Origin: an uncultured virus (IMG/VR IMGVR_UViG_3300009183_000092)
Taxonomy: Duplodnaviria > Heunggongvirae > Uroviricota > Caudoviricetes
Virus record (IMG/VR): IMGVR_UViG_3300009183_000092
Length of the DNA stretch: 64,000 nucleotides
Reading direction: 5' to 3' (one strand)
This document shows positions 174 through 64,000 of this stretch, in pieces; positions within the stretch are counted from its first letter, which is position 1; every line of letters starts with the position of its first letter. Under the pieces are notes generated by a model that was given only the letters and a program-made list of their open reading frames with translations, made no database searches and had not been told where the DNA came from. The translations under genes and the position numbers were made by a program.

Positions 174-632
174 CTATTCTTTGGGAAGAGGTAAAGTAAG
201 AACTTGTTCGTAATCTTTTAATGTAATTTCTATCCATCCTAGTTCAAAGTCAACCCATCTTTTCTGGACTTCTAAGTGCGCTATTTGTTTATCTTCTTTC
301 ATTAGGGAATCTAAGAAAGCCTTTTGTAGGTTGTCTATGTCTGGTTTTGATTGGTGGAATCTTCCATGATATAGTTTCTTTTTTTTCTTTGACCAGGAGC
401 GAGGAACCGGAATTACAAATGTTATTGAAGCTCCAATCGGAGGCATCGTAAAGGATTTTCTTTTTGCTTCGGATGCAAGATCAATTTTGTATTTGTTATA
501 CCTCTCTAATCTCATTAGTCTTTTAAGACCGGCTGGGCGTAACTTTTCTCTTGGTATTCTAAAGAATATTGAATCACCTTGAGTTGCCCTTACGTGAGTT
601 TGAGGAGTTATGTTAAGAGTTACCTTTCTCAT
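174..632 (-). CDS. rusA: RusA-family Holliday junction resolvase
   Basis: PRSWSKKKK and KPDIDNLQKAFLDSL..ED..I motifs typical of RusA. Confidence 0.88.
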   Translation of the reverse strand: MRKVTLNITPQTHVRATQGDSIFFRIPREKLRPAGLKRLMRLERYNKYKIDLASEAKRKSFTMPPIGASITFVIPVPRSWSKKKKKLYHGRFHQSKPDIDNLQKAFLDSLMKEDKQIAHLEVQKRWVDFELGWIEITLKDYEQVLTLPLPKE

Positions 633-795
633 AAGCTATACCAGCGATGGTTTTTATTTCGGTTTTTTGTTTAGCTAAATACCTTTCTAAAATATCCTCT
701 ACTGTTTTACTTAATGACCATTTTTTCTTTTCTGCTAAAAGTTGTAGTTTAGTGTAACTTTCTTCTGATAATGTAATTGTTATTCTTTTCTTCAT
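613..795 (-). CDS. Ribbon-helix-helix (CopG/Arc-like) DNA-binding protein
   Basis: KRITITLSEESY..L..LA...SLS..VE pattern. Confidence 0.75.
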   Translation of the reverse strand: MKKRITITLSEESYTKLQLLAEKKKWSLSKTVEDILERYLAKQKTEIKTIAGIAYEKGNS

Positions 796-838
796 GTGAT
801 GATGTTTGATGCAATTTACATCACAATGGTGAAAGCAA

Positions 839-865
839 CAAAAAAACCTCCTTTTTTAAGGGAGG
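839..865 (-). terminator. Putative intrinsic terminator after 901..1092
   Basis: CCTCC/GGAGG stem followed by a U-run on the minus strand. Confidence 0.5.
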
Positions 866-900
866 CTAAGTAAAAGAAAGAAAACATAAAATCTACAAAC

Positions 901-1092
901 CTACTTTTTTCTAGCCATTGCTGATAGCTTAGAGAATTTCTTTGCACCGTATTTTTTACGGCCTATAGAGGCTGCTATTGCGGCTCCAACCTCTTTAGCA
1001 TGTTCTGGGTTCATTCCTTTCTTTTCGTATGATTTTGCCGCTTTATTTTCAATTGTAGCGAATCTTTCACCTGACCCCAACTTTGGTTTCAT
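901..1092 (-). CDS. Small lysine-rich phage protein
   Basis: LGSGERF...A.AA.IGRKKYG pattern common in small basic phage proteins. Confidence 0.7.
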   Translation of the reverse strand: MKPKLGSGERFATIENKAAKSYEKKGMNPEHAKEVGAAIAASIGRKKYGAKKFSKLSAMARKK

Positions 1093-1104
1093 TTTACATT
1101 TTGT

Positions 1105-1476
1105 TTATTGGTTTTTTAACTGGCCTTTCTTATTTTCAGCAATTTTTTCAATATATGTTTTTATATCAGATAAATGTTCTGGTTTCAAAGTTTCTTTTAT
1201 ATGTTTATCTATAAATTGTTTAACATCTATATTTTTATCATAAGCTTCTAAACCAACTTTGCCTAATCTTTCCTTAGTTTCTTCGTCCATGCTACGATAA
1301 GGTTTTATGTTATCTATTAATTTATTAGCTGATTTTTCTGCTTCATTTATATTTTTCAATATTTTTGATTTTTTTTCTTCATCAGGCGCTTTTAATGAAG
1401 TATTTTTCATGTCATATTTGGCTTTCATTGATGACAATTTTTTACCAATAGTAGAATTTATTTTTTGAGGTACCAT
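1105..1476 (-). CDS. Hypothetical protein
   Basis: 123-aa ORF with an upstream TATATTTG box. Confidence 0.6.
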   Translation of the reverse strand: MVPQKINSTIGKKLSSMKAKYDMKNTSLKAPDEEKKSKILKNINEAEKSANKLIDNIKPYRSMDEETKERLGKVGLEAYDKNIDVKQFIDKHIKETLKPEHLSDIKTYIEKIAENKKGQLKNQ

Positions 1477-1495
1477 AATTAATTTATTTAATCAC

Positions 1496-1503
1496 CAAAT
1501 ATA
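1496..1503 (-). promoter_or_regulatory. Bacteroidota-type -7 promoter box (TATATTTG)
   Basis: Matches TAnnTTTG, 20 nt upstream of the ORF start at 1476. Confidence 0.6.
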
Positions 1504-1820
1504 CGAAATATTTACCACCACAACCACCAATTATATTAGAAAAAAAACCGCAAAGTTCTACATCAACACTTGCTGAAAGGTCCCGACCATAAAAATTCGC
1601 CCCCACTTTTTTGGGGTTTCGCGCTCCCTAGCACCGAGTACCCTCGCTCATGGGTTGCCCTATGACCTACCTTGCAATCCTTTGTTGGCGTTGGTTTATG
1701 GGGTTGGGACATGGACATGGTTATGGTCATGGTGTCTTGCAATTGCTTACCTTATTTGCATTGGTTATATGTTGGTTGGTATGTTAAGGAAGGGGGGGGA
1801 TGTGGGGAAATATTTGGTTA

Positions 1821-4800: not shown

Positions 4801-4872
4801 TTACTGGTCAAGGATTTGAACCTTGAATGACAGAATCAAAATCTGTAGTGTTGCCAATTACACCAACCAGCA
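4801..4872 (-). tRNA. tRNA-Gln(UUG), CCA not encoded
   Basis: Acceptor TGCTGGT/ACCAGTA, D-arm GTGTAATTGGCAACAC, anticodon arm ACAGA-TTTTGAT-TCTGT, T-loop GTTCAAATC. Confidence 0.93.
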
Positions 4873-14141: not shown

Positions 14142-16190
14142 ATGTATAATAAAATTGAAGGCGGAAGTGTAGTAAATATACAGGGATTGCTTTGCAATTT
14201 GCCTCCTGAAGGTTATGTGTTTAATATAATTACAAAACAAGTAGAATTTAGAGGGGTTTACAAAAGGTCTGAAATTGAATCAGAGCAATATTGGAAAAGA
14301 ATAATGTTACCAGATTGGTACCAAGATACTATGAAGAAATGGGATGAATTTGATAAAAAGAAAAAAGATGATGAGGTTGAATTTTATGATGAAAGATTAG
14401 AAGAATATAAGAAACAAGAATGGGATAGAAGGTTGAATGGATTTTGGTATATGAATAATGGCACACCAATATATTTAACAGGTTTGCATTATTTATATTT
14501 ACAATGGTGGCCCATAGATATAGGTTATCCTAAGTTCAGAATGCCAGATTTGGAAAAGTTTTATTTCATGGACTATTGTATTCAAGATCCGTTGTGTATG
14601 GGGATGCTTGAAGTAACTAAAAGACGTTTTGGTAAGTCATTTGTGGCCGGTCTGTTTGTTTCTGAATACATTACTAGAACCAAGATGACAAACGGTGGTA
14701 TTCAGTCTAAAACAGGATCTGATGCTAAAAAATTCTTTGCTAAAACTGTAGTAAATCCTTTTAGAAGGCTTCCTAAGTTTTTTAGACCAGAATATGATAT
14801 GTCTTTGGGTGTTAATCCTAAGACTGAGATGAGATTCCAAAAAACAAACGTAAGAGGTAAAAAAGCAGAAGATAGCGTAGATAAAGATGAATTAGGATCA
14901 ATTATTGACCACCAGTCGGCAGATACAGTTGCTTATGATGGACAGAAACTACATAGATACGTAGCAGATGAGTGTGGTAAAACTACAGAAGTGAATGTAT
15001 ATGATAGACACGAGGTTGTGCGTTATTGTTTGCTAGATGACGAAGGAAAGATTATTGGGAAGGCTTTATATACTACTACAGTAGAAAAATTAACTACCGA
15101 AAAAGATGGGGTTCAAGATGCGTTTAAATTATTATGGGAGGAAAGTAATCAAGACAAAAGGCAAGAAAATGGAACTACATCAAGTGGATTATATAGATTT
15201 TTCATGTCGGCCAAAAGAACTAGAAATTTTGATGACTTTGGATTCCCAGATGAAAATAAAACTTTAGACCAGATTTTAGCAGATAGGGAAACAGTTAAAA
15301 ATAACTCAAGGGCCCTATCTGCTCGTATTAGAAAAGAACCATTAACTATAGATGAAGCTTTTAGTACGGATTCCGATAAGTGCATATTCAATGTAATGAA
15401 TATAGGAGCTAGAGAACAATATTTAAAAGAAACTCCTGTATTAAAACGTCATATAATGTTCTATAGAGATATAGACCAGACTGTTAGATGGAGAAATATT
15501 ACAGATAAAGAAGAAGATTTTCATTGGGTAATTACACAGTTCCCAAAACCAGGAGAAGAAAACAAGCACACTTTTGATGTTAAAACAAGAAAACCAGGTA
15601 GGGTTTCGGATGGCGCAATAGCTATTGACGGATATAGTAATAGTCAAGGTGGTAAATATGGCTCTAAGGCCTCTGCATGGATTGGTAGGAGGTATGATTT
15701 ATTAAATCCAGAGCATACTGGTAAGCCTATTGGGCATCTTTATGGGAGACCACAAATAAAAGAAACTCTTCACGAGCAAGTTCTTTTGGCTGCTGAATTT
15801 TATGGTTATCAGGCATGGTATGAGCATAATAGTGATGATTATTTATCATATTTTAGAGATAGAGGTAGGGTTGGTTATTTGGGTTCATATCCTATGTCAA
15901 CTATTGCTCCAGATAAAAGAGAAACAGCAGATAGGCACAAGGGTTTCCCAACAACTCCGTTTAGTTTGACAAAGCAAACAGATGTGGGGATTATGTATTT
16001 TGAATCTCATATAGATTCAATAGATTTTGAAAATTTACTTGAAGATGCCAAAAAGTTTGATCCAAATAATAGAACAGATTATGACATAACTGTGTCTTTT
16101 TTGATGTTAATAGTTTGTTTAATGGAGCCTATTCAAAAACAAGTTAAACGAGAACCATTGGTGAAAAGTTATGTTCCTGTGTTTAATTAA
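14142..16190 (+). CDS. terL: Terminase large subunit
   Basis: Walker A TKRRFGKS, Walker B YVADECGK, nuclease IAIDGY and YD..VS. Confidence 0.9.
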   Translation: MYNKIEGGSVVNIQGLLCNLPPEGYVFNIITKQVEFRGVYKRSEIESEQYWKRIMLPDWYQDTMKKWDEFDKKKKDDEVEFYDERLEEYKKQEWDRRLNGFWYMNNGTPIYLTGLHYLYLQWWPIDIGYPKFRMPDLEKFYFMDYCIQDPLCMGMLEVTKRRFGKSFVAGLFVSEYITRTKMTNGGIQSKTGSDAKKFFAKTVVNPFRRLPKFFRPEYDMSLGVNPKTEMRFQKTNVRGKKAEDSVDKDELGSIIDHQSADTVAYDGQKLHRYVADECGKTTEVNVYDRHEVVRYCLLDDEGKIIGKALYTTTVEKLTTEKDGVQDAFKLLWEESNQDKRQENGTTSSGLYRFFMSAKRTRNFDDFGFPDENKTLDQILADRETVKNNSRALSARIRKEPLTIDEAFSTDSDKCIFNVMNIGAREQYLKETPVLKRHIMFYRDIDQTVRWRNITDKEEDFHWVITQFPKPGEENKHTFDVKTRKPGRVSDGAIAIDGYSNSQGGKYGSKASAWIGRRYDLLNPEHTGKPIGHLYGRPQIKETLHEQVLLAAEFYGYQAWYEHNSDDYLSYFRDRGRVGYLGSYPMSTIAPDKRETADRHKGFPTTPFSLTKQTDVGIMYFESHIDSIDFENLLEDAKKFDPNNRTDYDITVSFLMLIVCLMEPIQKQVKREPLVKSYVPVFN

Positions 16191-16246: not shown

Positions 16247-18736
16247 TTGGCAGATAGTCCCTTATCCATATCGGCAGCAAATAGTAATGGTGAAGCTTTA
16301 AAAAAGTTTCAAATTACTACAGACGTATCTTCTAAAAAAGATTATACTTATGGCAAAAATGTTGCTCAAAGCATTTATTCTACAATCTATGGTAATCAAA
16401 CTTATTTTTGGTTAAGAAATAATAGATTTAGAAAAAATAGACAAATAGCAAACGGAAAGATTGACATGAGTGTCTTTATGGATCGTTTAGAAATGAATAG
16501 CAAAGCAAACTTTGTAAACATCAATTGGAAATCAATTATTATTGGTAATACAATTGTCGCAAGGTTAGTTGGTTCATGGATGAGTAGAAAGGAAAAAATA
16601 AGTGTAACTGCGACAGATGAGGCTTCTGCAATGGCCAAGAAACATGCGGCAAGTGAAGCTGAGTTTGTTTATAATAATAAAGAAGTTTTAGCTCAATTGC
16701 AAGATGAGTCTGGAATACCTTTGGTACCACCAAGTCAATTTGTTGCAGAAGATAAAGATGAATTAGATCAATGGATAATGGAATTCAACCATTTACCAGA
16801 AGAAATTTTATATAGTTTAGGTTGTAACAATGTTTTAGAAGCAAATGGATGGAACGATGTTTTAAAACAAAGATTATTACATGATTCAGCAGAAGTTGGA
16901 TTAGTATGTACTTATACTTGGATGGATGAAGAAGGAGAGGTTCATGTTCAATGGATTCGCCCAGAAAATGCAATTTATTCTTATTCAGATTTTCCTGATT
17001 TTAGAGATACTACTTATAGAGGACATATCTTATCAATGAAAATTAGTGAGATAAGAGCAAGATATAGCAAACAGGCTGGAGGTTCATTAAGTGAGGAGGA
17101 TATTTTTGCTTTGGCACAATCTTCTAAAGAATATCAACTTACAGACAAGATTAAGTGGATGCAAGACTGGAATGTTGCTTGGTTGAGACCTTATGATGAA
17201 TGGAATATTGACTTAATGCAATTTGAAATTAAGACATTAGATGCTGATGGATATACTGTTACCAAGACAAAGAAAAATGGTAGTACTATTATAAAAAAGG
17301 GTAAACCAGAAAAATTAGATGATAATCAGCAATATTTAGAAGAGAAAAAATGGAATATATATGAAGGTGTATATTGTCCAGTTACTCAAAAGATGATTAA
17401 GTGGGGTATTAAAAAAAACATGATTCGCCCACAAGATCCAAAAGAAATAGGTAACTCAGAATTTTCTTACAGCTTTTATATGTATGATCCTTATGACATG
17501 CGTAACGTTGCTGTACCAGAAAAAATTGAAGAGCCTATTGAACAAATGATTTTAGCTAGATTAAAAATACAACAATTAGTAGCTAAGATGGTACCAGCAG
17601 GTGCAGCTATTGATGTGGATGCAATGCAGGAATTAGATTTAGGTTTGGGTGATTCAGTTAAACCATTAGATGTTCAAAGAATATGGGAACAAACAGGTAA
17701 ACTTTATTATCGTGGCAGAGATGCTGAAGGTAATAGAATTCCTGTTCCAATTACTGAATTGGCTAATAGCGGTTTTGCGCCTCAATTACAAGCTTTGATT
17801 CAATTATATCAATTCCATTATCAAGTATTAAAAGATGAATTAGGAGAAGATCCTAATTTAATGAATCAAGCTGCACAACCAAGAGTTGCCGCTTCAAATA
17901 TTGAAGCTTCAAGAGTATTGGCAAATAATGCTACAGAATATATGTATGATGCATATATTTATGTAATGGAAGAAACTAGCAAAAAAATTGCTTGTTTATT
18001 AAACAAAAGTGTAACATTTGGTGCAAAAAAATATAGAGATTTACTTAGAGAAGAAGATGTGAAAAATAGAAATTTTGTTGCAACAATAAAAATGCTTCCA
18101 AGTGAAATGGAAATTGCAAATTTGCAAGCAATGATGAATAACTCTATTGCTTCAAATCCTCAATTAGTAATTTACCTAGATCCATTTAAGGCAATGAGAA
18201 TTGCTAAAGAAAATGTAGCATTAGCTGAATTATATTTTAGACAAGCGCAGAAGAGATATATAAAAACAGAACAAGAAAAAGCTCAAGCGAATAGCGAACA
18301 AAATGCACAAATACAGCAATCTAGTATGCAAGCAAAAGCTCAAGGAGATGCTGCATTATTGGATAAGCAAACACAAGCAAAACAAAGAGAAATTATAATT
18401 CAAGGTATGTTTGATTTAGCTAAGGCCAATATTCCTATGCCAGCTGAATTAAAGCCTTTAGTTGCTGAGATGTTACAAAATGTTGAAATGCCATTAATGA
18501 TGGATAATCAACAAATGGAACAAGCTATTCAACAACAGCAAATGCAGCAGCAACAAGCGGCAATGCAACAACAGCAACAACAACAGGGTCAAGGACAAGA
18601 ACAACAAGGTCAAGAACAAGAAATGTCACCAGAGGAACAACAGATGATGGCAGAACAACAAGGCCAAGGTCAAGAAGAAATGTCACCAGAAGAACAGCAG
18701 ATGATGGCACAACAAATGGAAATGCAACAACAATAA
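16247..18736 (+). CDS. Portal protein with Gln-rich C-terminal tail
   Basis: Position after terL, size, WEQTG.LYYR and PITEL motifs seen in Bacteroidota podovirus portals. Confidence 0.8.
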   Translation: MADSPLSISAANSNGEALKKFQITTDVSSKKDYTYGKNVAQSIYSTIYGNQTYFWLRNNRFRKNRQIANGKIDMSVFMDRLEMNSKANFVNINWKSIIIGNTIVARLVGSWMSRKEKISVTATDEASAMAKKHAASEAEFVYNNKEVLAQLQDESGIPLVPPSQFVAEDKDELDQWIMEFNHLPEEILYSLGCNNVLEANGWNDVLKQRLLHDSAEVGLVCTYTWMDEEGEVHVQWIRPENAIYSYSDFPDFRDTTYRGHILSMKISEIRARYSKQAGGSLSEEDIFALAQSSKEYQLTDKIKWMQDWNVAWLRPYDEWNIDLMQFEIKTLDADGYTVTKTKKNGSTIIKKGKPEKLDDNQQYLEEKKWNIYEGVYCPVTQKMIKWGIKKNMIRPQDPKEIGNSEFSYSFYMYDPYDMRNVAVPEKIEEPIEQMILARLKIQQLVAKMVPAGAAIDVDAMQELDLGLGDSVKPLDVQRIWEQTGKLYYRGRDAEGNRIPVPITELANSGFAPQLQALIQLYQFHYQVLKDELGEDPNLMNQAAQPRVAASNIEASRVLANNATEYMYDAYIYVMEETSKKIACLLNKSVTFGAKKYRDLLREEDVKNRNFVATIKMLPSEMEIANLQAMMNNSIASNPQLVIYLDPFKAMRIAKENVALAELYFRQAQKRYIKTEQEKAQANSEQNAQIQQSSMQAKAQGDAALLDKQTQAKQREIIIQGMFDLAKANIPMPAELKPLVAEMLQNVEMPLMMDNQQMEQAIQQQQMQQQQAAMQQQQQQQGQGQEQQGQEQEMSPEEQQMMAEQQGQGQEEMSPEEQQMMAQQMEMQQQ

Positions 18737-56723: not shown

Positions 56724-57731
56724 ATGCCATCAATTAATGGTAATTCAAAAATAGCAAGGGCATACAGGGCTAAATACCCCGATATGCCCACTTTGAAGTT
56801 AGCAAGAATAATGTACAATGAAAACAATCTAACTTTCCCAAATTTAGAGGGGGCTAGAGGTACATTAAGGTACATAGAAGGTAAAAATGGAGAAGGTCAA
56901 AGAAAAAAAATTACCAAAAAAAATACTGAATTTTTAAAAGAAGAAGCTAGGCCATACAATCCATATAGTCTGCCTAAATCAGATGAAACTGCATTTGAGC
57001 CTTATGTATTCAAAGGACATAAGAAAGTTTTAATTCTTTCTGATATTCATGTGCCATATCATAGCATAGATGCCATAACTGCGGCTATCCAATATGCAAA
57101 AAAATCAAAGCCTGATGCCCTTCTTTTAAACGGAGATACCATAGACTGCCACAGATTAAGTCGGTTTATAAAAGATCCAAAAAAGCGTAACTTTAAGCTA
57201 GAGTTAGATACATTCAAAGAGTTATTTGATGTGTTTGAAAAGCAATTAAAGTGCAAAATCTATTTTAAAATAGGTAATCATGAAGAAAGATACGAGCATT
57301 TCCTTTATGAGAAAGCCGGTGAATTGGTAGGCATAGAGGAGTTTGAGTTTGAAAACATCATCAAAGCTAGAGCCAGAGGTATAGAAATTATAGGAGATAA
57401 AAGGCCTATGAAATTAAATAATCTGTGGGGAATTCATGGCCACGAATACGTAGGTGGTATTTCGGCTCCTGTTAACCCTGCTAGGGGGTTATTCTTAAAA
57501 GCTAAGGTAAGTACCTTCCAAGGCCATAACCACCAAACAAGTGAGCATACAGAGCCTACATTGACTGGGAAAATGGTTACCACGTGGTCTCTAGGTTGTT
57601 TAAGTGAATTGCATCCAGCCTATATGCCACTAAACAAATGGAACCATGGTTTTGCAGAGGTAGATTTAGATTCTAACGGAGAAGATTTTGAATTCAACAA
57701 TAAGCGTATCTTTAAGGGCAAAATATTATAG
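56724..57731 (+). CDS. Calcineurin-like metallophosphoesterase
   Basis: SDIH, GD..D, GNHE, HGH, GH.H. Confidence 0.88.
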   Translation: MPSINGNSKIARAYRAKYPDMPTLKLARIMYNENNLTFPNLEGARGTLRYIEGKNGEGQRKKITKKNTEFLKEEARPYNPYSLPKSDETAFEPYVFKGHKKVLILSDIHVPYHSIDAITAAIQYAKKSKPDALLLNGDTIDCHRLSRFIKDPKKRNFKLELDTFKELFDVFEKQLKCKIYFKIGNHEERYEHFLYEKAGELVGIEEFEFENIIKARARGIEIIGDKRPMKLNNLWGIHGHEYVGGISAPVNPARGLFLKAKVSTFQGHNHQTSEHTEPTLTGKMVTTWSLGCLSELHPAYMPLNKWNHGFAEVDLDSNGEDFEFNNKRIFKGKIL

Positions 57732-58303: not shown

Positions 58304-58308
58304 ATATT

Positions 58309-58506
58309 CTAATTATTTTTTATTTTATTATAATTATTAAAATCAACAGCTAATTTTATAATATTTAAAAAATCTGGGCTCTCCTCTAATCCAATAGCAA
58401 GTAAAAATCCTAAATCCTCCATTTCTCCATCAATTTCAATTTTAGATTCATTTTCAGTTAATTCCAAATAAATTTTTGCATTTTTTGGTTTGTAGTCATA
58501 TTTCAT
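58309..58506 (-). CDS. Hypothetical protein
   Basis: ORF in minus-strand array. Confidence 0.55.
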   Translation of the reverse strand: MKYDYKPKNAKIYLELTENESKIEIDGEMEDLGFLLAIGLEESPDFLNIIKLAVDFNNYNKIKNN

Positions 58507-58516
58507 TTTTTTTAAT

Positions 58517-58708
58517 TTAATCTAGTTTAATAATTAATTCATAAATATCAATGCCATTTGGTTTTACTTCCGAGTTCCATATTGCTAACATTCTTTTTCT
58601 ATGATAAACACTATGAAACTTATATTCCCTAATTAGTTTACCGCTCTTGAATAATTGCATTGTCCCCTTTATTTTGCTTCCCCAGTCTTTCGGCCTCTTG
58701 TTCATCAT
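58517..58708 (-). CDS. Hypothetical protein
   Basis: ORF in minus-strand array. Confidence 0.55.
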   Translation of the reverse strand: MMNKRPKDWGSKIKGTMQLFKSGKLIREYKFHSVYHRKRMLAIWNSEVKPNGIDIYELIIKLD

Positions 58709-58820
58709 AAATTTTTTTTAATTCTTTATAATCTGCAATTAATTTATTGATCCTTTCTCTCAAGGTTTCGTTTTCCAATTTAAGGAGATAGTTTTGCCCC
58801 ATTTCATATTGGTTTCTCAT
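58638..58820 (-). CDS. Coiled-coil hypothetical protein
   Basis: ORF in minus-strand array. Confidence 0.55.
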   Translation of the reverse strand: MRNQYEMGQNYLLKLENETLRERINKLIADYKELKKIYDEQEAERLGKQNKGDNAIIQER

Positions 58821-59056
58821 TAGTTGTCGGTTTCTGTGTTTGACAATATAAACTTCCTATCGGGCAATGGGTTAGCAGCCCATTTATTATATAAATCGTA
58901 CATTTCCTCGTATCTCTCTTGATTATACCATGCATTGTGGTATATTTCTGCTATTATCATTTGCCTTTCGTATGGGGTGAATTCTGCAAATGTTGTGAAA
59001 GTTTGTGGTTGTGTTGGTGTTCCCAATACTTGTTCGCTGATTGATTTGTTTCCCAT
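58820..59056 (-). CDS. Hypothetical protein
   Basis: ORF in minus-strand array. Confidence 0.6.
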   Translation of the reverse strand: MGNKSISEQVLGTPTQPQTFTTFAEFTPYERQMIIAEIYHNAWYNQERYEEMYDLYNKWAANPLPDRKFILSNTETDN

Positions 59057-59073
59057 GTTTTTTTGTTTTGTGT

Positions 59074-59277
59074 TTAAAAATTTACATCTACTGTTAATAC
59101 GTGTACTTTACCTACTCTATTATACTTTATTACTTCCGGCAATATCATGTTATTCTTTATACGATATTTTATAGCCTGCTGTGTTAATGAAGCATTAGGA
59201 TTCTTTCTGTTTGACCTGAAATAATCAGGACTAATTTTTTCTGAATATTCCTTAACACTAATTTGTTTCGTTTTCAT
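59074..59277 (-). CDS. Putative HTH DNA-binding protein
   Basis: ISVKEY...TQQAIKYRIK. Confidence 0.55.
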   Translation of the reverse strand: MKTKQISVKEYSEKISPDYFRSNRKNPNASLTQQAIKYRIKNNMILPEVIKYNRVGKVHVLTVDVNF

Positions 59278-59470
59278 TTTTTATTTCAATTGTTTTAATA
59301 GATTCTTTGAAAGTTTCTTGTTCATTGTTAGTAATAATAGTATGAAGATAATCTTCCACTTTTGCAAGGTCAGAGCTAGCAGAATTCATTATATATCTGC
59401 CATCCTTTTCAATGTAATAAAGTACATCACCGGTAAAAGACGTTTCTTTTACGATTTCAAATTTTGCCAT
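59258..59470 (-). CDS. Hypothetical protein
   Basis: ATG at 59470 (MAKFEIV) with A-rich leader. Confidence 0.6.
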   Translation of the reverse strand: MAKFEIVKETSFTGDVLYYIEKDGRYIMNSASSDLAKVEDYLHTIITNNEQETFKESIKTIEIKNENETN

Positions 59471-59483
59471 GTTTTTTGGTTTT

Positions 59484-59726
59484 TTAGTTATTAAAATATT
59501 CATTAAATATTGATTCAAATACGCTTAGTTTATTTGACGATGCTGAATTTATCTCTTCGGTAAATTCTTCCCATTGGTCATCATCTAAGTATATATCCCA
59601 TTTCTCGGCAAGGGATTGCCACATCACAATAAGATCTTCCATGTCCAAGTATGGAAAGTTATTGTCTTTAAACATTCGGTGCATTGTGTCGCAAAGCATT
59701 GCTTCTTTTGTTAGTTCTTTACCCAT
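59484..59726 (-). CDS. Acidic hypothetical protein
   Basis: ORF in minus-strand array. Confidence 0.6.
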   Translation of the reverse strand: MGKELTKEAMLCDTMHRMFKDNNFPYLDMEDLIVMWQSLAEKWDIYLDDDQWEEFTEEINSASSNKLSVFESIFNEYFNN

Positions 59727-59848
59727 TTTATTATTCTTTTAAGTTCAAAAAATATGTGTGCAGTGAGGTATAAAATAATAGCTAATGGCAAACCAATAAT
59801 TAACAAATGCAAAAATTGGAGCATAGTAATGATTGTTGATTTAATCAT
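59711..59848 (-). CDS. 45-aa membrane peptide
   Basis: Manual translation MIKSTIITMLQFLHLLIIGLPLAIILYLTAHIFF... Confidence 0.5.
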   Translation of the reverse strand: MIKSTIITMLQFLHLLIIGLPLAIILYLTAHIFFELKRIIKWVKN

Positions 59849-59938
59849 GTGTGTCGGTTTTGGTAAAATTAGCATTTATTTTTATTACAGCAAAATAAAT
59901 TAAATTAATTAATTTGTTAGTTGGCGCGTTCTGTGATT

Positions 59939-60127
59939 TTAGATAGAGGACAGCGCTTCCCAATAATGGTTTTCTACTTCTATGTTAAGAGCCTCTTTTA
60001 AGCCTTTTATTTTACGCTCTACCGGTATGATATTCTTTACCTTGCCATCAGTCAGTAGCTTGTTTAATGCCTTAATTTGGCTTTTTAATTTGTTGATTTT
60101 TTGAGATGGTGTTAATGGTTTTTTCAT
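59939..60127 (-). CDS. Basic coiled-coil hypothetical protein
   Basis: ORF with A-rich leader. Confidence 0.6.
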   Translation of the reverse strand: MKKPLTPSQKINKLKSQIKALNKLLTDGKVKNIIPVERKIKGLKEALNIEVENHYWEALSSI

Positions 60128-60158
60128 GGTTTTTTATTTTGTTTAATATATAAAATAT

Positions 60159-60202
60159 GTGCGTTGATATCGTATGCGCACCCCACGTTAACCCAACGAT
60201 AT
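60159..60202 (-). ncRNA. Candidate H-type pseudoknot RNA element
   Basis: AUAUCGU/ACGAUAU crossing GUGCG/CGCAC; intergenic GC-rich island. Confidence 0.4.
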
Positions 60203-60218
60203 ATAATTAGATAAAATA

Positions 60219-60503
60219 TTAAAAGTTGGATAGGTAGTCAACTGCGGTGTAACTAACAAGAATCTTTTGGTCATCATCCAAGGATGCCAATGGGATTGCT
60301 CGGCTCCACGATTCGCAATAGTCATATACTTGCGCCATGTCAGAGGTTGTAGTGTATTGCACACCATCACTTCCATAATTACATGAGTCACAATAAGCCT
60401 CAGCTAAATGTTTGCTAACGAATGCATCACATTTGAATGCCTCAGCGCCATCGCAATCGGTTCCATAACCAATCACGAAATAAATTCCAATAGCTTTAGT
60501 CAT
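60219..60503 (-). CDS. Hypothetical early protein
   Basis: Starts 14 nt after hammerhead HH4. Confidence 0.65.
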   Translation of the reverse strand: MTKAIGIYFVIGYGTDCDGAEAFKCDAFVSKHLAEAYCDSCNYGSDGVQYTTTSDMAQVYDYCESWSRAIPLASLDDDQKILVSYTAVDYLSNF

Positions 60504-60516
60504 AAGTTTTATTTTT

Positions 60517-60572
60517 GGTTAATACGAGCTATTTCTAGCTCGTTTCAAGGATTCACCTATCATCAGTTAACC
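60517..60572 (-). ncRNA. Hammerhead ribozyme type I (HH4)
   Basis: GGUUAA CUGAUGA U-AGG-UGAAU-CCU-U GAAA CGAGCUA-GAAA-UAGCUCG UA UUAACC. Confidence 0.8.
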
Positions 60573-60760
60573 TATGCGATAATATCATCGTGTAGCGCCT
60601 CTAATTCATTAATCCATCCATTGTACGATATGTCACGACCATCCTCTAGGACAACACATTCAAATGTGCTTTCTAGGTCATCGTTCCACCCATTGGTAAT
60701 ATTTTCTTGTATTTTAGCTAGGATTTGTTCTAGTCTGATTTTGATTTCTAAATTGGTCAT
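60572..60760 (-). CDS. Acidic hypothetical early protein
   Basis: TAG stop overlaps the first G of HH4. Confidence 0.6.
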   Translation of the reverse strand: MTNLEIKIRLEQILAKIQENITNGWNDDLESTFECVVLEDGRDISYNGWINELEALHDDIIA

Positions 60761-60771
60761 GTTTTTTAATT

Positions 60772-60969
60772 TTAAATAAATCTAATAATAAGATTATTGT
60801 TATCAAATATGTTTATGTTAAACATTCGTTCAAATTTTCTTATATCAATGGAATCTCGTTTTTGCCGAATTGATTCCGATATGAATTCATCATCGTTACA
60901 TGTTAAGCAACTAAAATTGTCATCCATTTTATCTACATCAATTGAATAGACTTTAATTTGTTCTATCAT
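60772..60969 (-). CDS. Hypothetical early protein
   Basis: ORF in array. Confidence 0.6.
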   Translation of the reverse strand: MIEQIKVYSIDVDKMDDNFSCLTCNDDEFISESIRQKRDSIDIRKFERMFNINIFDNNNLIIRFI

Positions 60970-60973
60970 AAAA

Positions 60974-61195
60974 TTATTTTAATTGGTTTCTTAATAAATA
61001 GGATTCTATTTTGGCATGCATGATATCAAATTGTTCCTGCATGAATTCGGTGTATCTGCTACCACCATCGCCATCATCCTCCCAAATTGTTTCAGTTGTA
61101 TACTCATAGGTTTGCTTAATAAATAAATCAGCTAGCTCGCAGGCTAATTCATTAATATAGAAAGTTCCTTTTGGTGTTGCGTTTAATGTTTCCAT
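60974..61195 (-). CDS. Hypothetical early protein
   Basis: INELACELA...YTE..QE.FD. Confidence 0.65.
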   Translation of the reverse strand: METLNATPKGTFYINELACELADLFIKQTYEYTTETIWEDDGDGGSRYTEFMQEQFDIMHAKIESYLLRNQLK

Positions 61196-61196
61196 T

Positions 61197-61580
61197 TTAT
61201 TTAATTTTAAATTTTGTAAATTGTTTATCTAATTCAAATGCATTCATCCAAGGTAAACTGATAGAATCATCCACAAAATAATTTGTAGGATTACCTAGAA
61301 TCTCGCAGTTCCCAATTTCATCAATTTGTTGGGTGCAATATTCTTTGACATCATCATTACCCCAAGTAAGCAAATATCCAATACCCCATATCTCGCAATA
61401 TGGCTCATGATTTGCACTTTCTTGATGGTAGTTGACATCTAAGTCAGTTCCATCCTTTAATTGAAAAGAATGCCAAAAATCACCGGTATCACCGGAGGTT
61501 AAATCAAACATAAAAACTTGTCCTAGATAATGCAAAGTCAATACTTTGTTATCATAGTCAATAACGAATTTTTTTTCCAT
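61197..61580 (-). CDS. Hypothetical early protein
   Basis: Starts 15 nt after HH3. Confidence 0.65.
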   Translation of the reverse strand: MEKKFVIDYDNKVLTLHYLGQVFMFDLTSGDTGDFWHSFQLKDGTDLDVNYHQESANHEPYCEIWGIGYLLTWGNDDVKEYCTQQIDEIGNCEILGNPTNYFVDDSISLPWMNAFELDKQFTKFKIK

Positions 61581-61594
61581 TTTAATTTTGTTTT

Positions 61595-61646
61595 GGTTAA
61601 TACCGGATTGCTCCGGTTTCGGAAATTTATTCCTCGTCAGTTAACC
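61595..61646 (-). ncRNA. Hammerhead ribozyme type I (HH3)
   Basis: GGUUAA CUGACGA GGAA-UAAAU-UUCC GAAA CCGGA-GCAA-UCCGG UA UUAACC. Confidence 0.93.
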
Positions 61647-61648
61647 TT

Positions 61649-61912
61649 TTAAATTGTCAATTGCCTATCATTATAGAATGGCTTTAAATCCTCATAGAAT
61701 GCCTCAAATTTTTCTTTATCTACTATGTTGGTGCAATCCACTACAAATTTATCATAGTAGCTTAATTCGTCTCTAATTGCATCATGTAGATATTCAGTTT
61801 GTTTTTTATCACATTCGTTAACTAACATCTTGAATAATTCATCTGCATCAAATTCCTCTAGGAGATTGCTAATCCATCGCTCTAATTTTTTAGAAGGTAT
61901 TTTATTTTTCAT
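61649..61912 (-). CDS. Acidic hypothetical early protein
   Basis: Stop 2 nt before HH3. Confidence 0.65.
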   Translation of the reverse strand: MKNKIPSKKLERWISNLLEEFDADELFKMLVNECDKKQTEYLHDAIRDELSYYDKFVVDCTNIVDKEKFEAFYEDLKPFYNDRQLTI

Positions 61913-61913
61913 T

Positions 61914-62024
61914 TTACTTATTTTTTTTGAATAATATCATGTAGCATATCTTAATACCAATGGCAATGAATATGCCAAATAATACTAAGTCAAAAATTGC
62001 AGTTGCGGTTTGTAGTGTGTTCAT
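61914..62024 (-). CDS. 36-aa membrane peptide
   Basis: Manual translation MNTLQTATAIFDLVLFGIFIAIGIKICYMILFKKNK*; same TTAAATTAAACAACATG leader as the 62451 gene. Confidence 0.6.
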   Translation of the reverse strand: MNTLQTATAIFDLVLFGIFIAIGIKICYMILFKKNK

Positions 62025-62034
62025 GTTGTTTAAT

Positions 62035-62451
62035 TTAAAATTTTATAAATTGATAATCGTATTCACCTTGATATGCTCCAATAAAAATTGAATCATCGCC
62101 TAAGTTTATTTCGTCAATCTCTTCGGGGTCTGACAATGTAATTGCGCCACTAATGAGTTTATGAAATTCTTTTTTACTTATAATTGGATGTACTTCATTT
62201 ACATTGCAAAATATCATTACACCATAAAGTTTTTCAGCATTGCGAATAAAAGTAAATGAGCCTTGGTCATCACCTTTATCATATGTAATACATCCAATAC
62301 TTGATTCAATATTTTCAGCATTGGTTTGAATGTCTACTAAAGATTCCAAATATTTTTGGGCCTCAGAATCACTAGTAAATTCTTTAATGTAAGCTAGATT
62401 ATCACTTGAATAACCTTCTCCGTTCCATGTTTCAGTAATTACGTATTTCAT
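62035..62451 (-). CDS. Hypothetical early protein
   Basis: ETWNGEGYS motif. Confidence 0.65.
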   Translation of the reverse strand: MKYVITETWNGEGYSSDNLAYIKEFTSDSEAQKYLESLVDIQTNAENIESSIGCITYDKGDDQGSFTFIRNAEKLYGVMIFCNVNEVHPIISKKEFHKLISGAITLSDPEEIDEINLGDDSIFIGAYQGEYDYQFIKF

Positions 62452-62469
62452 GTTGTTTAATTTAATAGT

Positions 62470-62703
62470 TTAATAATTATCTAATTCAGTCAAAATTTCG
62501 CCATCAGATGAGATAATGCCATTATCTATCAACTGAGATGCGAAACGGCCATAAAAGCCTTGTAATTGCCAACAATCACCGGTTTTGACGAGATATGCCC
62601 ATGCGCCTATTTTTTCTCTAGGTGTAGGCTCATCCTCGCAAAAACCCTCAATAATTGAACAAGCACGATAAGAGTCCATTGGTGTTAATGTTAATGTTTC
62701 CAT
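62470..62703 (-). CDS. Hypothetical early protein (W.LQG.YGR family)
   Basis: AW.YLV.TG..W.LQGFYGR; ATG at 62703, since the track start at 62733 lies inside HH2. Confidence 0.72.
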   Translation of the reverse strand: METLTLTPMDSYRACSIIEGFCEDEPTPREKIGAWAYLVKTGDCWQLQGFYGRFASQLIDNGIISSDGEILTELDNY

Positions 62704-62717
62704 GTTTATAATTTTTT

Positions 62718-62768
62718 GGTTAAGACCACCCAAAGGTGGTTTCGGCCATTAGGCCTCGTCAGTTAACC
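62718..62768 (-). ncRNA. Hammerhead ribozyme type I (HH2)
   Basis: GGUUAA CUGACGA GGCC-UAAU-GGCC GAAA CCACC-UUUG-GGUGG UC UUAACC. Confidence 0.95.
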
Positions 62769-63662
62769 TGCATAAATTGTCTCAAATAATCTCTCATCCA
62801 ATGTCCTTTGTTGGTCAAAGGTTTTTTTCAATTTACCATGAATCAATTCATTGAATGCATTGTATACTATCCATTGGTTAGGTCTAGTATTCAATTGCTT
62901 TGTCTCGCGCTCTACAACATCAAAGATGAATCGTGCATTGGCGCTAGGCTCCGGATTCTTATCAGATGCCTCATATTTAAACAATCCTAGAGTCTTAGCA
63001 GTTACTTTAACGTAATCCTCTAAGTTGTATACCGGTCTCTCTGCAAGCACCTCAAATTTGCGCTTAAGGGTAAAGAATTCATTGTCCATGAACAATTTTA
63101 CAATCTCATCCAATTTAGGCATTACGATGTCGGTAATGGCTCCGCTATGCTTTACTGAGAATCCTATGTGAGTCTGAGCTACGTGTAATCCATTGTCACA
63201 TACTTTGCGCCAAAATCCAAAGCTACCACTAGTCTTGCAACTGCCATCGTAACTATTAACGAATCGTAACATAGGGCGTAAAATATCTTTCTCACCTTTA
63301 ACCTCTACTTTGTATCGGTCATCTGCTAGGATATAATCCACTACAAAAGAGCGATTGTCACGATTAATACTACGTTGTTGGTAATAAATGTCCGCATCAA
63401 TTAACTTCTCCTCTACTCCTAGGAAGAAAATCTCATTAGGCAAATGGCCATAAGAATTAGATACTACGTTCACGATTTGATTCTCACAAACGATAGCATT
63501 CTCCAAACCCCTTCTAGACGGGATTCCGGTTAGTTTCTCCAATGGGACTACCTCAGATGTCACTAGAACATCATCTTGTCTAGAATTGGCTAAAAGGTGG
63601 CTTAATTTTGATTCTGCCTCTTGACTAGTTTTTGCTGAAAATTTGTCTTGTAATTGATTCAT
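62763..63662 (-). CDS. DUF932 family protein
   Basis: VS.SY...PN, NSYDGS...GFWRKVCDNGL...KH, W..YNA.N. Confidence 0.85.
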   Translation of the reverse strand: MNQLQDKFSAKTSQEAESKLSHLLANSRQDDVLVTSEVVPLEKLTGIPSRRGLENAIVCENQIVNVVSNSYGHLPNEIFFLGVEEKLIDADIYYQQRSINRDNRSFVVDYILADDRYKVEVKGEKDILRPMLRFVNSYDGSCKTSGSFGFWRKVCDNGLHVAQTHIGFSVKHSGAITDIVMPKLDEIVKLFMDNEFFTLKRKFEVLAERPVYNLEDYVKVTAKTLGLFKYEASDKNPEPSANARFIFDVVERETKQLNTRPNQWIVYNAFNELIHGKLKKTFDQQRTLDERLFETIYAG

Positions 63663-63701
63663 AAAATTAGGTCAGTTTTTTATGTGGTGGCTCCACATTA
63701 T

Positions 63702-63753
63702 GGTTAAGACCATCCGGAGATGGTTTCGCATATTGAATGCTCCTCAGTTAACC
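63702..63753 (-). ncRNA. Hammerhead ribozyme type I (HH1)
   Basis: GGUUAA CUGAGGA GCAU-UCAAU-AUGC GAAA CCAUC-UCCG-GAUGG UC UUAACC. Confidence 0.93.
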
Positions 63754-63757
63754 TTTG

Positions 63758-64000
63758 TTACGCTAGTCTAGGTAAAAAGTCCTCATCATCCTCTCTTAAT
63801 CCATTGTAATCGTGTGCAATTGTTTCAATGATTATTAAAGGAGTCTCAGCATTGTTTACCAATTCCTTCAGATTGTCTATGTAAGGACATAGCTTAACTG
63901 CTATATCCATTTGTGTACGAGGTGATGCTAAATCGCCAACATACTTTTCAATGATTAATAACGTGTCACATAATTGTTCATACTTGTTGCTTAATAATTG
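63758..64000 (-). CDS. Hypothetical early protein, 5' end outside window
   Basis: Open frame to the window edge ...TIAHDYNGLREDDEDFLPRLA*. Confidence 0.6.
   Translation of the reverse strand, partial: QLLSNKYEQLCDTLLIIEKYVGDLASPRTQMDIAVKLCPYIDNLKELVNNAETPLIIIETIAHDYNGLREDDEDFLPRLA

Follow-up and report, generated by a model that had tools for sequence, protein, structure and literature searches.

In a 64,000-nucleotide (nt) stretch of DNA from an uncultured tailed virus (IMG/VR record IMGVR_UViG_3300009183_000092; Caudoviricetes), the whole of which is referred to here as the window, four type I hammerhead ribozymes (HH1 to HH4) were found in a block of small genes. Their identity as hammerheads was confirmed at the level of sequence, predicted fold and family membership. 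As judged from the sequence, they probably serve as punctuation of a polycistronic early transcript, which they would cut in cis at the junctions between genes. All four carry the same stem I, and the first-pass annotation of this DNA had taken these identical ends as a sign of circular or partner-swapping phage messenger RNAs (mRNAs). Our analysis showed that the identical stem I is a hallmark of the ribozyme subclass to which the four copies belong, and that it is no evidence for circular messages. The four hammerheads are listed below with their predicted cuts and their scores with the family covariance model.

63702-63753, minus strand: HH1, type I hammerhead; cut between 63708 and 63707, after GUC; 65.3 bits
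62718-62768, minus strand: HH2, type I hammerhead; cut between 62724 and 62723, after GUC; 66.2 bits
61595-61646, minus strand: HH3, type I hammerhead; cut between 61601 and 61600, after GUA; 62.1 bits
60517-60572, minus strand: HH4, type I hammerhead; cut between 60523 and 60522, after GUA; 54.6 bits; stem III of 8 base pairs (bp) and a U-U mismatch (U10.1-U11.1) at the base of stem II

The search pattern GGTTAA-CTGANGA-N8-30-GAAA-N8-30-TTAACC gave exactly four matches in the 64-kb window, all on the minus strand, and none in the 100 dinucleotide shuffles that served as control. A looser descriptor, which accepted any stem I of at least 5 bp, returned the same four copies and no others in the 64 kb. 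The covariance model, R1, was trained on 48 family members with the window copies excluded and was run on the window with its filters off. It scored HH1 to HH4 at 54.6 to 66.2 bits (E 1.9e-12 to 1.3e-15), and the next match in the window reached 11.4 bits (E 1.2). Reading of the minus strand from 60400 to 64000 revealed the layout GGUUAA-CUGANGA-hairpin-GAAA-hairpin-U-H-UUAACC in all four copies, each with an intact core comprising C3-U4-G5-A6-N7-G8-A9, G12-A13-A14, the A15.1-U16.1 pair, and C or A as H17. Sequence and folds agree on the type I topology, in which helix I is open and helices II and III are closed by loops, and the minimum-energy fold at 37 °C is a three-way junction for each of the four. 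The positions, coding strand and cut sites given in the first-pass annotation, together with the CUGAnGA, GAAA and GUC or GUA elements read in each copy, were thus borne out by pattern, descriptor, covariance model and fold. Its observation that stems II and III differ in sequence yet pair also held, as neither stem is identical in any of the six pairs of window copies (0/6 each, against 6/6 for stem I) and all copies fold into the junction. The common form U..AAU that it had assigned to loop II applies only loosely, the four loops being UCAAU, UAAU, UAAAU and UGAAU.

The four copies are members of a subclass that is very common in phages. The full pattern, stem I sequence included, occurs in at least 129 IMG/VR stretches. 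Among the 144 unique matches listed from outside the window, 129 have a stem II of at least 3 bp and a stem III of at least 4 bp, pairing that the pattern does not demand, and 200 interior shuffles gave a mean of 0.36 and a maximum of 2 by the same criterion. A second scan, in which the core alone was fixed and stem I left free, yielded 129 unique matches and 94 well-formed copies; stem I was at least 5 bp long in 87 of these 129 matches and exactly 6 bp in 66, as against a mean of 4.4 with permuted flanks or partners. In an alignment of 64 sequences, 98.2% of the cells pair and 13 of the 15 pairs have changes on both sides, and the covariation score of 0.762 (0.150 in shuffles) was equalled by none of 500 shuffles. 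The descriptor misses copies with an extra U before stem II, which R1 does recover, so that the comparison within and between contigs and the counts based on 214, 122 and 43 copies below are lower bounds. In 122 canonical copies, an A stands before stem I in 98% and after it in 99%, stem II has 4 bp in 112, and loop II has 5 nt of the type U-N-A-A/G-U in 87. At the sequence level, the subclass is thereby shown to be marked by a stem I that is exactly 6 bp long and flanked on either side by an unpaired A, by a 4-bp stem II, and by a loop II of the type U-N-A-A/G-U. This fixed geometry may reflect a tertiary contact of loop II with stem I that is needed for fast cleavage.

The hammerheads are located in a leftward (minus-strand) block of small open reading frames (ORFs) that runs from beyond 64000 to about 58309, and in which the only Pfam families found are those of a DUF932 and a DUF7417 protein. 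The predicted cuts delimit units of 984, 1123 and 1078 nt with one, four and four intact ORFs, as had been annotated. The contents of the block, with protein lengths in amino acids (aa), are as follows.

63758-64000, minus strand: 3' part of an 82-aa ORF, the sole gene of a 323-nt unit between a fifth hammerhead (see below) and HH1; no Pfam family
63682-63698, minus strand: leader hairpin just after HH1; -6.7 kcal/mol, z -1.99
62763-63662, minus strand: DUF932 protein of 299 aa, unit 1; PF06067, E 1.7e-15; phrog_21518
62470-62703, minus strand: DUF7417 protein (Pfam), first gene of unit 2
62035-62451, minus strand: 138-aa ORF, unit 2
61914-62024, minus strand: 36-aa ORF, unit 2
61649-61912, minus strand: 87-aa ORF, unit 2
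61197-61580, minus strand: 127-aa ORF, unit 3
60974-61195, minus strand: 73-aa ORF, unit 3
60772-60969, minus strand: 65-aa ORF, unit 3
60572-60760, minus strand: 62-aa ORF, unit 3
58309-60503, minus strand: rest of the leftward small-ORF block after HH4, without a hammerhead; plus-strand genes converge on it near 58305

The ribozymes are fitted tightly between these genes. The 82-aa ORF stops at 63758, 4 nt upstream of HH1; the stop codon of the DUF932 gene is the TAA of HH2 stem I (62763-62765); and the first G of HH4 is the last base of the TAG stop upstream. On the other side, the leader from cut to start codon measures 45 nt between HH1 and the DUF932 gene, 20 nt between HH2 and the ATG at 62703, 20 nt between HH3 and the ATG at 61580, and 19 nt between HH4 and the ATG at 60503. 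The same arrangement prevails among 214 family members with at least 300 nt on each side. An ATG-initiated ORF of at least 40 aa begins within 150 nt downstream in 205 of them, with a median leader of 24 nt and few leaders below 18 nt, and the stop of an upstream ORF is close by in 195, being the TGA of CUGA in 46 and the TAA of stem I in 33. Units between adjacent family copies range from 179 to 2573 nt (median 534) and carry ordinary ORFs.

The array was predicted to continue beyond position 64000, and it does. A metagenome contig of 2.7 kb (L274), identical to the window at 63939-64000, carries a fifth hammerhead at the window-equivalent positions 64025-64077, about 25 nt past the window end, and this copy has the same stem I, extending the invariance of GGUUAA/UUAACC noted earlier from the four window copies to five. 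A leader of 24 nt then leads to the beginning of the ORF that is cut by the window end. With the fifth copy included, the array comprises units of one, one, four and four ORFs. The unit between the fifth hammerhead and HH1 is 323 nt long, and the units are therefore not uniformly about 1 kb; that description holds for the three units within the window and fails for the one before HH1.

Contig L274 has further features of its own. Its positions 1249-2719 are the reverse complement of window positions 335-1805 at 100% identity, joined through 1186 new bases to the part matching 63939-64000, which has the orientation of the window; this join represents either inverted terminal repeats of at least about 1.8 kb in a genome of about 67 kb or a hairpin-type artefact in one of the assemblies. 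On the minus strand at L274:515-560 (window-equivalent about 64450-64500), a partial hammerhead-like core is present (CUGAAGAG, a short hairpin, and CGAAAC). It adjoins the first small ORF of the block on the upstream side, its stems I and III are not recognisable, and R1 did not report it at E values up to 0.001; it could be a relic or a chance occurrence. Upstream of the first two small genes, long ORFs are absent from some 700 nt at positions 520-1250 (minus); this region likely serves the leftward early block as its promoter or in regulation, or else encodes a non-coding RNA.

The position of the ribozymes points to their role as operon punctuation, because every copy occupies a gene junction on the coding strand, with an ORF start downstream and a stop upstream, and because terminator-like sites show no excess between the units. 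A promoter and terminator scan of the block gave near-chance counts, with a consensus that is unsuited to promoters of the Bacteroidota type. In the mechanism that we propose, each ribozyme would fold on the nascent polycistronic RNA and cleave it in cis behind GUC or GUA. Of the two products, the upstream one would end in the complete ribozyme and carry a 2',3'-cyclic phosphate, and the downstream one would open with 5'-OH-UUAACC and reach its start codon after an A-rich leader of about 20 nt. The transcript would thereby be split into messages of 0.3 to 1.1 kb, whose stability and translation would be uncoupled from those of their neighbours, so that each cassette would be insulated. Synthetic insulators of the RiboJ type work in this manner, the self-cleaving element ensuring that the 5' leader of a cassette is defined irrespective of the sequence before it, and in repeat-bounded cassette systems the shuffling of cassettes goes along with conserved short sequences at the junctions, such as the PeSL repeats of T4-type phages and the attC sites of integrons. 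The likeness to RiboJ, PeSL and attC is one of function, and membership is not claimed; the hammerheads described here are natural phage elements, and no dedicated recombinase is implied.

Two sources may account for the uniform stem I under this punctuation mechanism. One would be the subclass signature, that is, 6 bp with G first, AA next to the core and a flanking unpaired A; the other would be a standard held by the whole clade. Stem identity was compared within and between contigs that had been found without fixing stem I.

Stem I, both strands: identical in 17/48 within-contig pairs and 30/3003 between-contig pairs
Stem I, 3' strand only: identical in 27/48 within-contig pairs
Stem II (4 nt): identical in 11/48 within-contig pairs and 232/3003 between-contig pairs
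Stem III (4 nt): identical in 13/48 within-contig pairs and 158/3003 between-contig pairs

On the point that the first-pass annotation had suggested checking, the counts show that identity of stem I is far more frequent within contigs than between them. Uniformity is not confined to arrays, though: 20 of the 43 canonical copies with at least 2.5 kb on both sides have no second same-strand hammerhead within 2.5 kb and keep the same stem I. These solitary copies cannot form a unit, and compatibility within an array is therefore not needed to explain the helix. In 16 related loci of the clade, R1 found 35 hammerheads, all on the coding strand, and when the window copies are added, GGUUAA/UUAACC is present in 36 of 39, a G-U variant in two, and an aberrant form in one. 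Orthologous arrays with a different stem I were sought among the DUF932 relatives and none was found, all 16 loci using the same stem I. As a pattern in sequence, stem I is thus shown to be a clade-wide standard and not the property of one array. An extra U between A9 and stem II was observed in 24 of the 35 clade hammerheads. Arrays with another stem I (in contigs L179, L221 and L232) have a constant 3' strand and tolerate G-U pairs through the 5' strand, as where GGCUAA and GACUAA both stand opposite UUAGUC; such forms look like intermediates of compensatory change.

These results bear on the proposal that each unit rebuilds a hammerhead from its own ends or from those of a second unit, and that the ribozyme or host RtcB then ligates it into a circular or shuffled mRNA, which we consider very unlikely. 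In its favour, the five identical stem I helices make every unit end-compatible, stem I varies much less inside a contig than from one contig to another, the end-to-end pairing of stem I in unit 1 was calculated as 0.73 (ViennaRNA, 37 °C), and the ends are chemically suitable: the type I topology leaves the whole catalytic core on the end with the 2',3'-cyclic phosphate, as stated in the text of Perreault et al. (2011, PMC3088659). However, the same stem I stands in the 20 of 43 copies that lack a partner within 2.5 kb and in 36 of the 39 copies of the 16 related loci and the window. The helix has no more than 6 bp, with energies of -4.1 kcal/mol at 37 °C and -5.9 kcal/mol at 20 °C; conserved A-A mismatches delimit it, and it is never extended. 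End pairing in units 2 and 3 amounts to 0.025 and 0.005 at 37 °C; at 20 °C the values for units 1 to 3 are 0.71, 0.12 and 0.0003, under an energy model that is lenient on long-range closure. The units of the family, at 179 to 2573 nt and with ordinary ORFs, vary widely, and some arrays (L141, L148, L184 and L188) mix incompatible stems. Families of RNA ligases, RtcB and polynucleotide kinases were not found in the 63 window ORFs scanned, the only related match being a calcineurin-like phosphoesterase at 56724-57731, and circular or spliced products sought in other arrays were, according to the text of the 2011 paper, not detected (data not shown there). The conclusion from identical ends to circular or partner-swapping mRNAs is accordingly unsupported: this stem I is the commonest in the subclass, occurs in solitary copies and extends across the clade, and the main argument for rejoining is removed, since uniform ends have simpler explanations. 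An extended version, in which the clade-wide stem I acts as a shared adapter in two processes, the rejoining of RNA into circular or reshuffled mRNAs and the exchange of the same cassettes between phage genomes, has in our estimate a similarly slim chance of being correct. Circles, if real, would be a new class of phage mRNA, and nothing found here points to them.

The reason for a clade standard that we prefer would lie in recombination between phage genomes. The clade is highly mosaic in this region, with varying gene presence and absence and permuted gene order. The homologues of window 61924-61668 and 61588-61183, which flank HH3, have exchanged places in L260 and L262-L265, and some relatives lack a hammerhead between these two small genes. 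In the window, L262, L265, L266 and L267, the hammerhead that follows the DUF932 gene has a single stem III hairpin in common, combined with four forms of the stem II hairpin and with downstream flanks of two kinds. The ribozymes on either side of DUF932 are HH1 and HH2 in the window; in L259 they have hairpins that match those of the fifth copy and of HH1. Overall, 27 combinations of stems occur among the 39 hammerheads, drawn from 19 classes of stem II and 19 of stem III; eight of the stem II classes are paired with more than one stem III class, and five stem III classes with more than one stem II class. The reassortment of hairpins II and III indicates that recombination at the DNA level passes through the ribozymes. 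Similarly, the leader hairpin module at 63682-63698 recurs at L262:4609-4623, L265:3055-3069 and L267:4361-4375; in the window it precedes DUF932, and in the three relatives it stands after DUF932 and before the homologue of the 138-aa ORF. This change of gene context suggests that leader modules travel with the 3' edge of the ribozyme. Contigs of related strains from four sequencing runs, probably DNA, that were aligned to the region have loose ends at 63754 and 61599-61650, which correspond to hammerhead edges; no back-junction was listed among their joints, a result that speaks neither for nor against circles or expression. Among cultured phages, the sole blastn match of the region was to the DUF932 gene of Flavobacterium psychrophilum phages (about 68% identity), and a 64-nt query around HH2 gave only weak partial matches there (E at least 0.1).

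Could structure alone have fixed stem I, through sequence-specific contacts with loop II, leaving plain punctuation with no part for recombination or RNA rejoining? The G at position 1, the AA at the core, the flanking A, the strict 6 bp and loop II are common to the subclass, including members with other stem I sequences, and GGUUAA/UUAACC is the commonest single variant of the core-only sample (8 of the 94 well-formed copies). The other stem I sequences of that sample are many, mostly of the form G-N-N-N-A-A/U-U-N-N-N-C, and the three middle pairs vary freely between contigs with compensatory changes, from which it follows that structure does not dictate them. Furthermore, stem I is constant in 36 of the 39 clade hammerheads while stems II and III have 19 classes each. 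We therefore regard structure alone as an unlikely explanation. The account that we favour is that the shared stem I would keep hybrid ribozymes functional after cassette exchange. Hairpins II and III are each self-contained and would work in any combination, and stem I alone has two separated strands that need to be compatible; a shared stem I would also lengthen the conserved blocks at both ribozyme edges. The pattern of recombination across ribozymes is observed, and we infer its link to the uniform helix from the chimeric ribozymes only.

Several results weigh against operon punctuation with a recombination-driven standard, and they concern the ribozymes, the transcript and the uniform stem in turn. 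The scan of the window with Rfam 15, which the first-pass annotation had recommended as a check, gave no hammerhead at gathering score; at E values up to 10, HH2 alone matched, with 23.2 bits to RF03152, whose gathering score is 56.3. Rfam likewise yielded no hammerhead match in family loci, of which 20 with 97,225 bases in all were scanned. The Rfam hammerhead families (RF03152, RF00163, RF00008 and RF02275-RF02277) share with the four copies the catalytic core and the three-way junction, yet none of the four reaches gathering score. The missing match is attributable to the coverage of the models and not to the absence of a core feature; the subclass is overlooked by Rfam 15, and annotation pipelines will consequently miss it. 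HH4, besides its U-U mismatch at the base of stem II, has a competing fold at 20 °C. The text of Perreault et al. (2011, PMC3088659) describes the U10.1-U11.1 mismatch from active natural hammerheads. That the leftward early or accessory gene block is transcribed as one RNA is an assumption of the mechanism. As for recombination, 47 of 104 ends of blast homology fall at the four hammerhead junctions, 35 at six other junctions and 22 elsewhere; because the windows counted at hammerheads are wider, there is no clear enrichment of breakpoints over other junctions. Plain inheritance of a slowly changing helix would give the same uniformity of stem I. Identity of stem II and of stem III, too, is somewhat more frequent within contigs than from one contig to another, so part of the likeness within contigs is due to recent duplication, and the arrays in L141, L148, L184 and L188 contain different stem I sequences.

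The failure of the Rfam models, and the coincidence of the motifs with mosaic junctions, would also be expected if the motifs were inactive relics, or DNA-level repeats such as recombination sites that merely resemble hammerheads. All core positions are intact in 4/4 copies, however, pairing has been kept through many compensatory changes in three helices, and all copies keep strictly to the coding strand. RNA pairing with G-U wobbles, moreover, would not be conserved by a DNA site. Given these points, we find relics or DNA repeats hardly credible, and punctuation by self-cleaving ribozymes is retained as the best explanation.

Both the layout and the proposed role have been known since Perreault et al. 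(2011, PMC3088659), and the idea of circles is not new either. The text of that paper describes clustered hammerheads that flank single genes or short blocks in prophages and phages, reports cleavage for three clustered arrays in vitro and one in vivo, and proposes a role in operon processing; circular or spliced products from clustered phage hammerheads were considered and, by the same text, not detected. The array in the window resembles those arrays in having several coding-strand hammerheads in the junctions of a phage operon, for which processing into gene-length mRNAs was proposed. It is set apart from them, as far as the paper's text shows, by being composed entirely of type I copies with an A-flanked stem I of exactly 6 bp. 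In addition, one stem I is common to the array and the clade here, and it is hairpins II and III that reassort. With retrozymes and viroid-like RNAs (de la Pena et al.; PMC7761336) the array shares the arrangement of two hammerheads that bracket a unit with ligatable 5'-OH and 2',3'-cyclic phosphate ends. Those elements are non-coding repeats of the same ribozyme for which circles have been observed, whereas the units described here are coding cassettes of 0.3 to 1.1 kb between different ribozymes, without repeat structure, and are known from DNA sequence alone. Our literature search, which did not extend to subscription journals and supplementary files, retrieved no report of circular mRNAs from phage hammerhead arrays. 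In a 2019 review (PMC6765202), the roles that self-cleaving ribozymes play in bacteria and phages are still described as largely unknown. Against this background, the locus represents a clean and compact example of hammerheads as operon punctuation, and three concrete points are added. First, Rfam 15 fails to detect a type I subclass that is very common in phages. Second, the geometry is tight: stem I has 6 bp and an A on each flank, stop codons come from the ribozyme itself, and the leader has a floor of about 18 nt. Third, the hairpins reassort while stem I is fixed within the clade, which suggests a population-level reason for the interchangeable ends without RNA circles.

The window belongs to an uncultured tailed phage of lake freshwater, about 67 kb in size, and the related IMG/VR contigs are 66-68 kb long. 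Profile scans of the ORFs identified a large terminase (14142-16190) and a portal protein (16247-18736), and a primase-helicase with a BT4734-like domain, RusA, NinG and a single-stranded DNA-binding protein (SSB) are further phage genes of the window. A calcineurin-like metallophosphoesterase (PF00149; phrog_221) encoded at 56724-57731 on the plus strand converges on the end of the early block; the calcineurin-like phosphoesterase fold includes 2',3'-cyclic phosphodiesterases, and nothing ties this gene to the ribozyme products. The sole Rfam match at gathering score in the window is a tRNA gene at 4801-4872 on the minus strand (58.3 bits).

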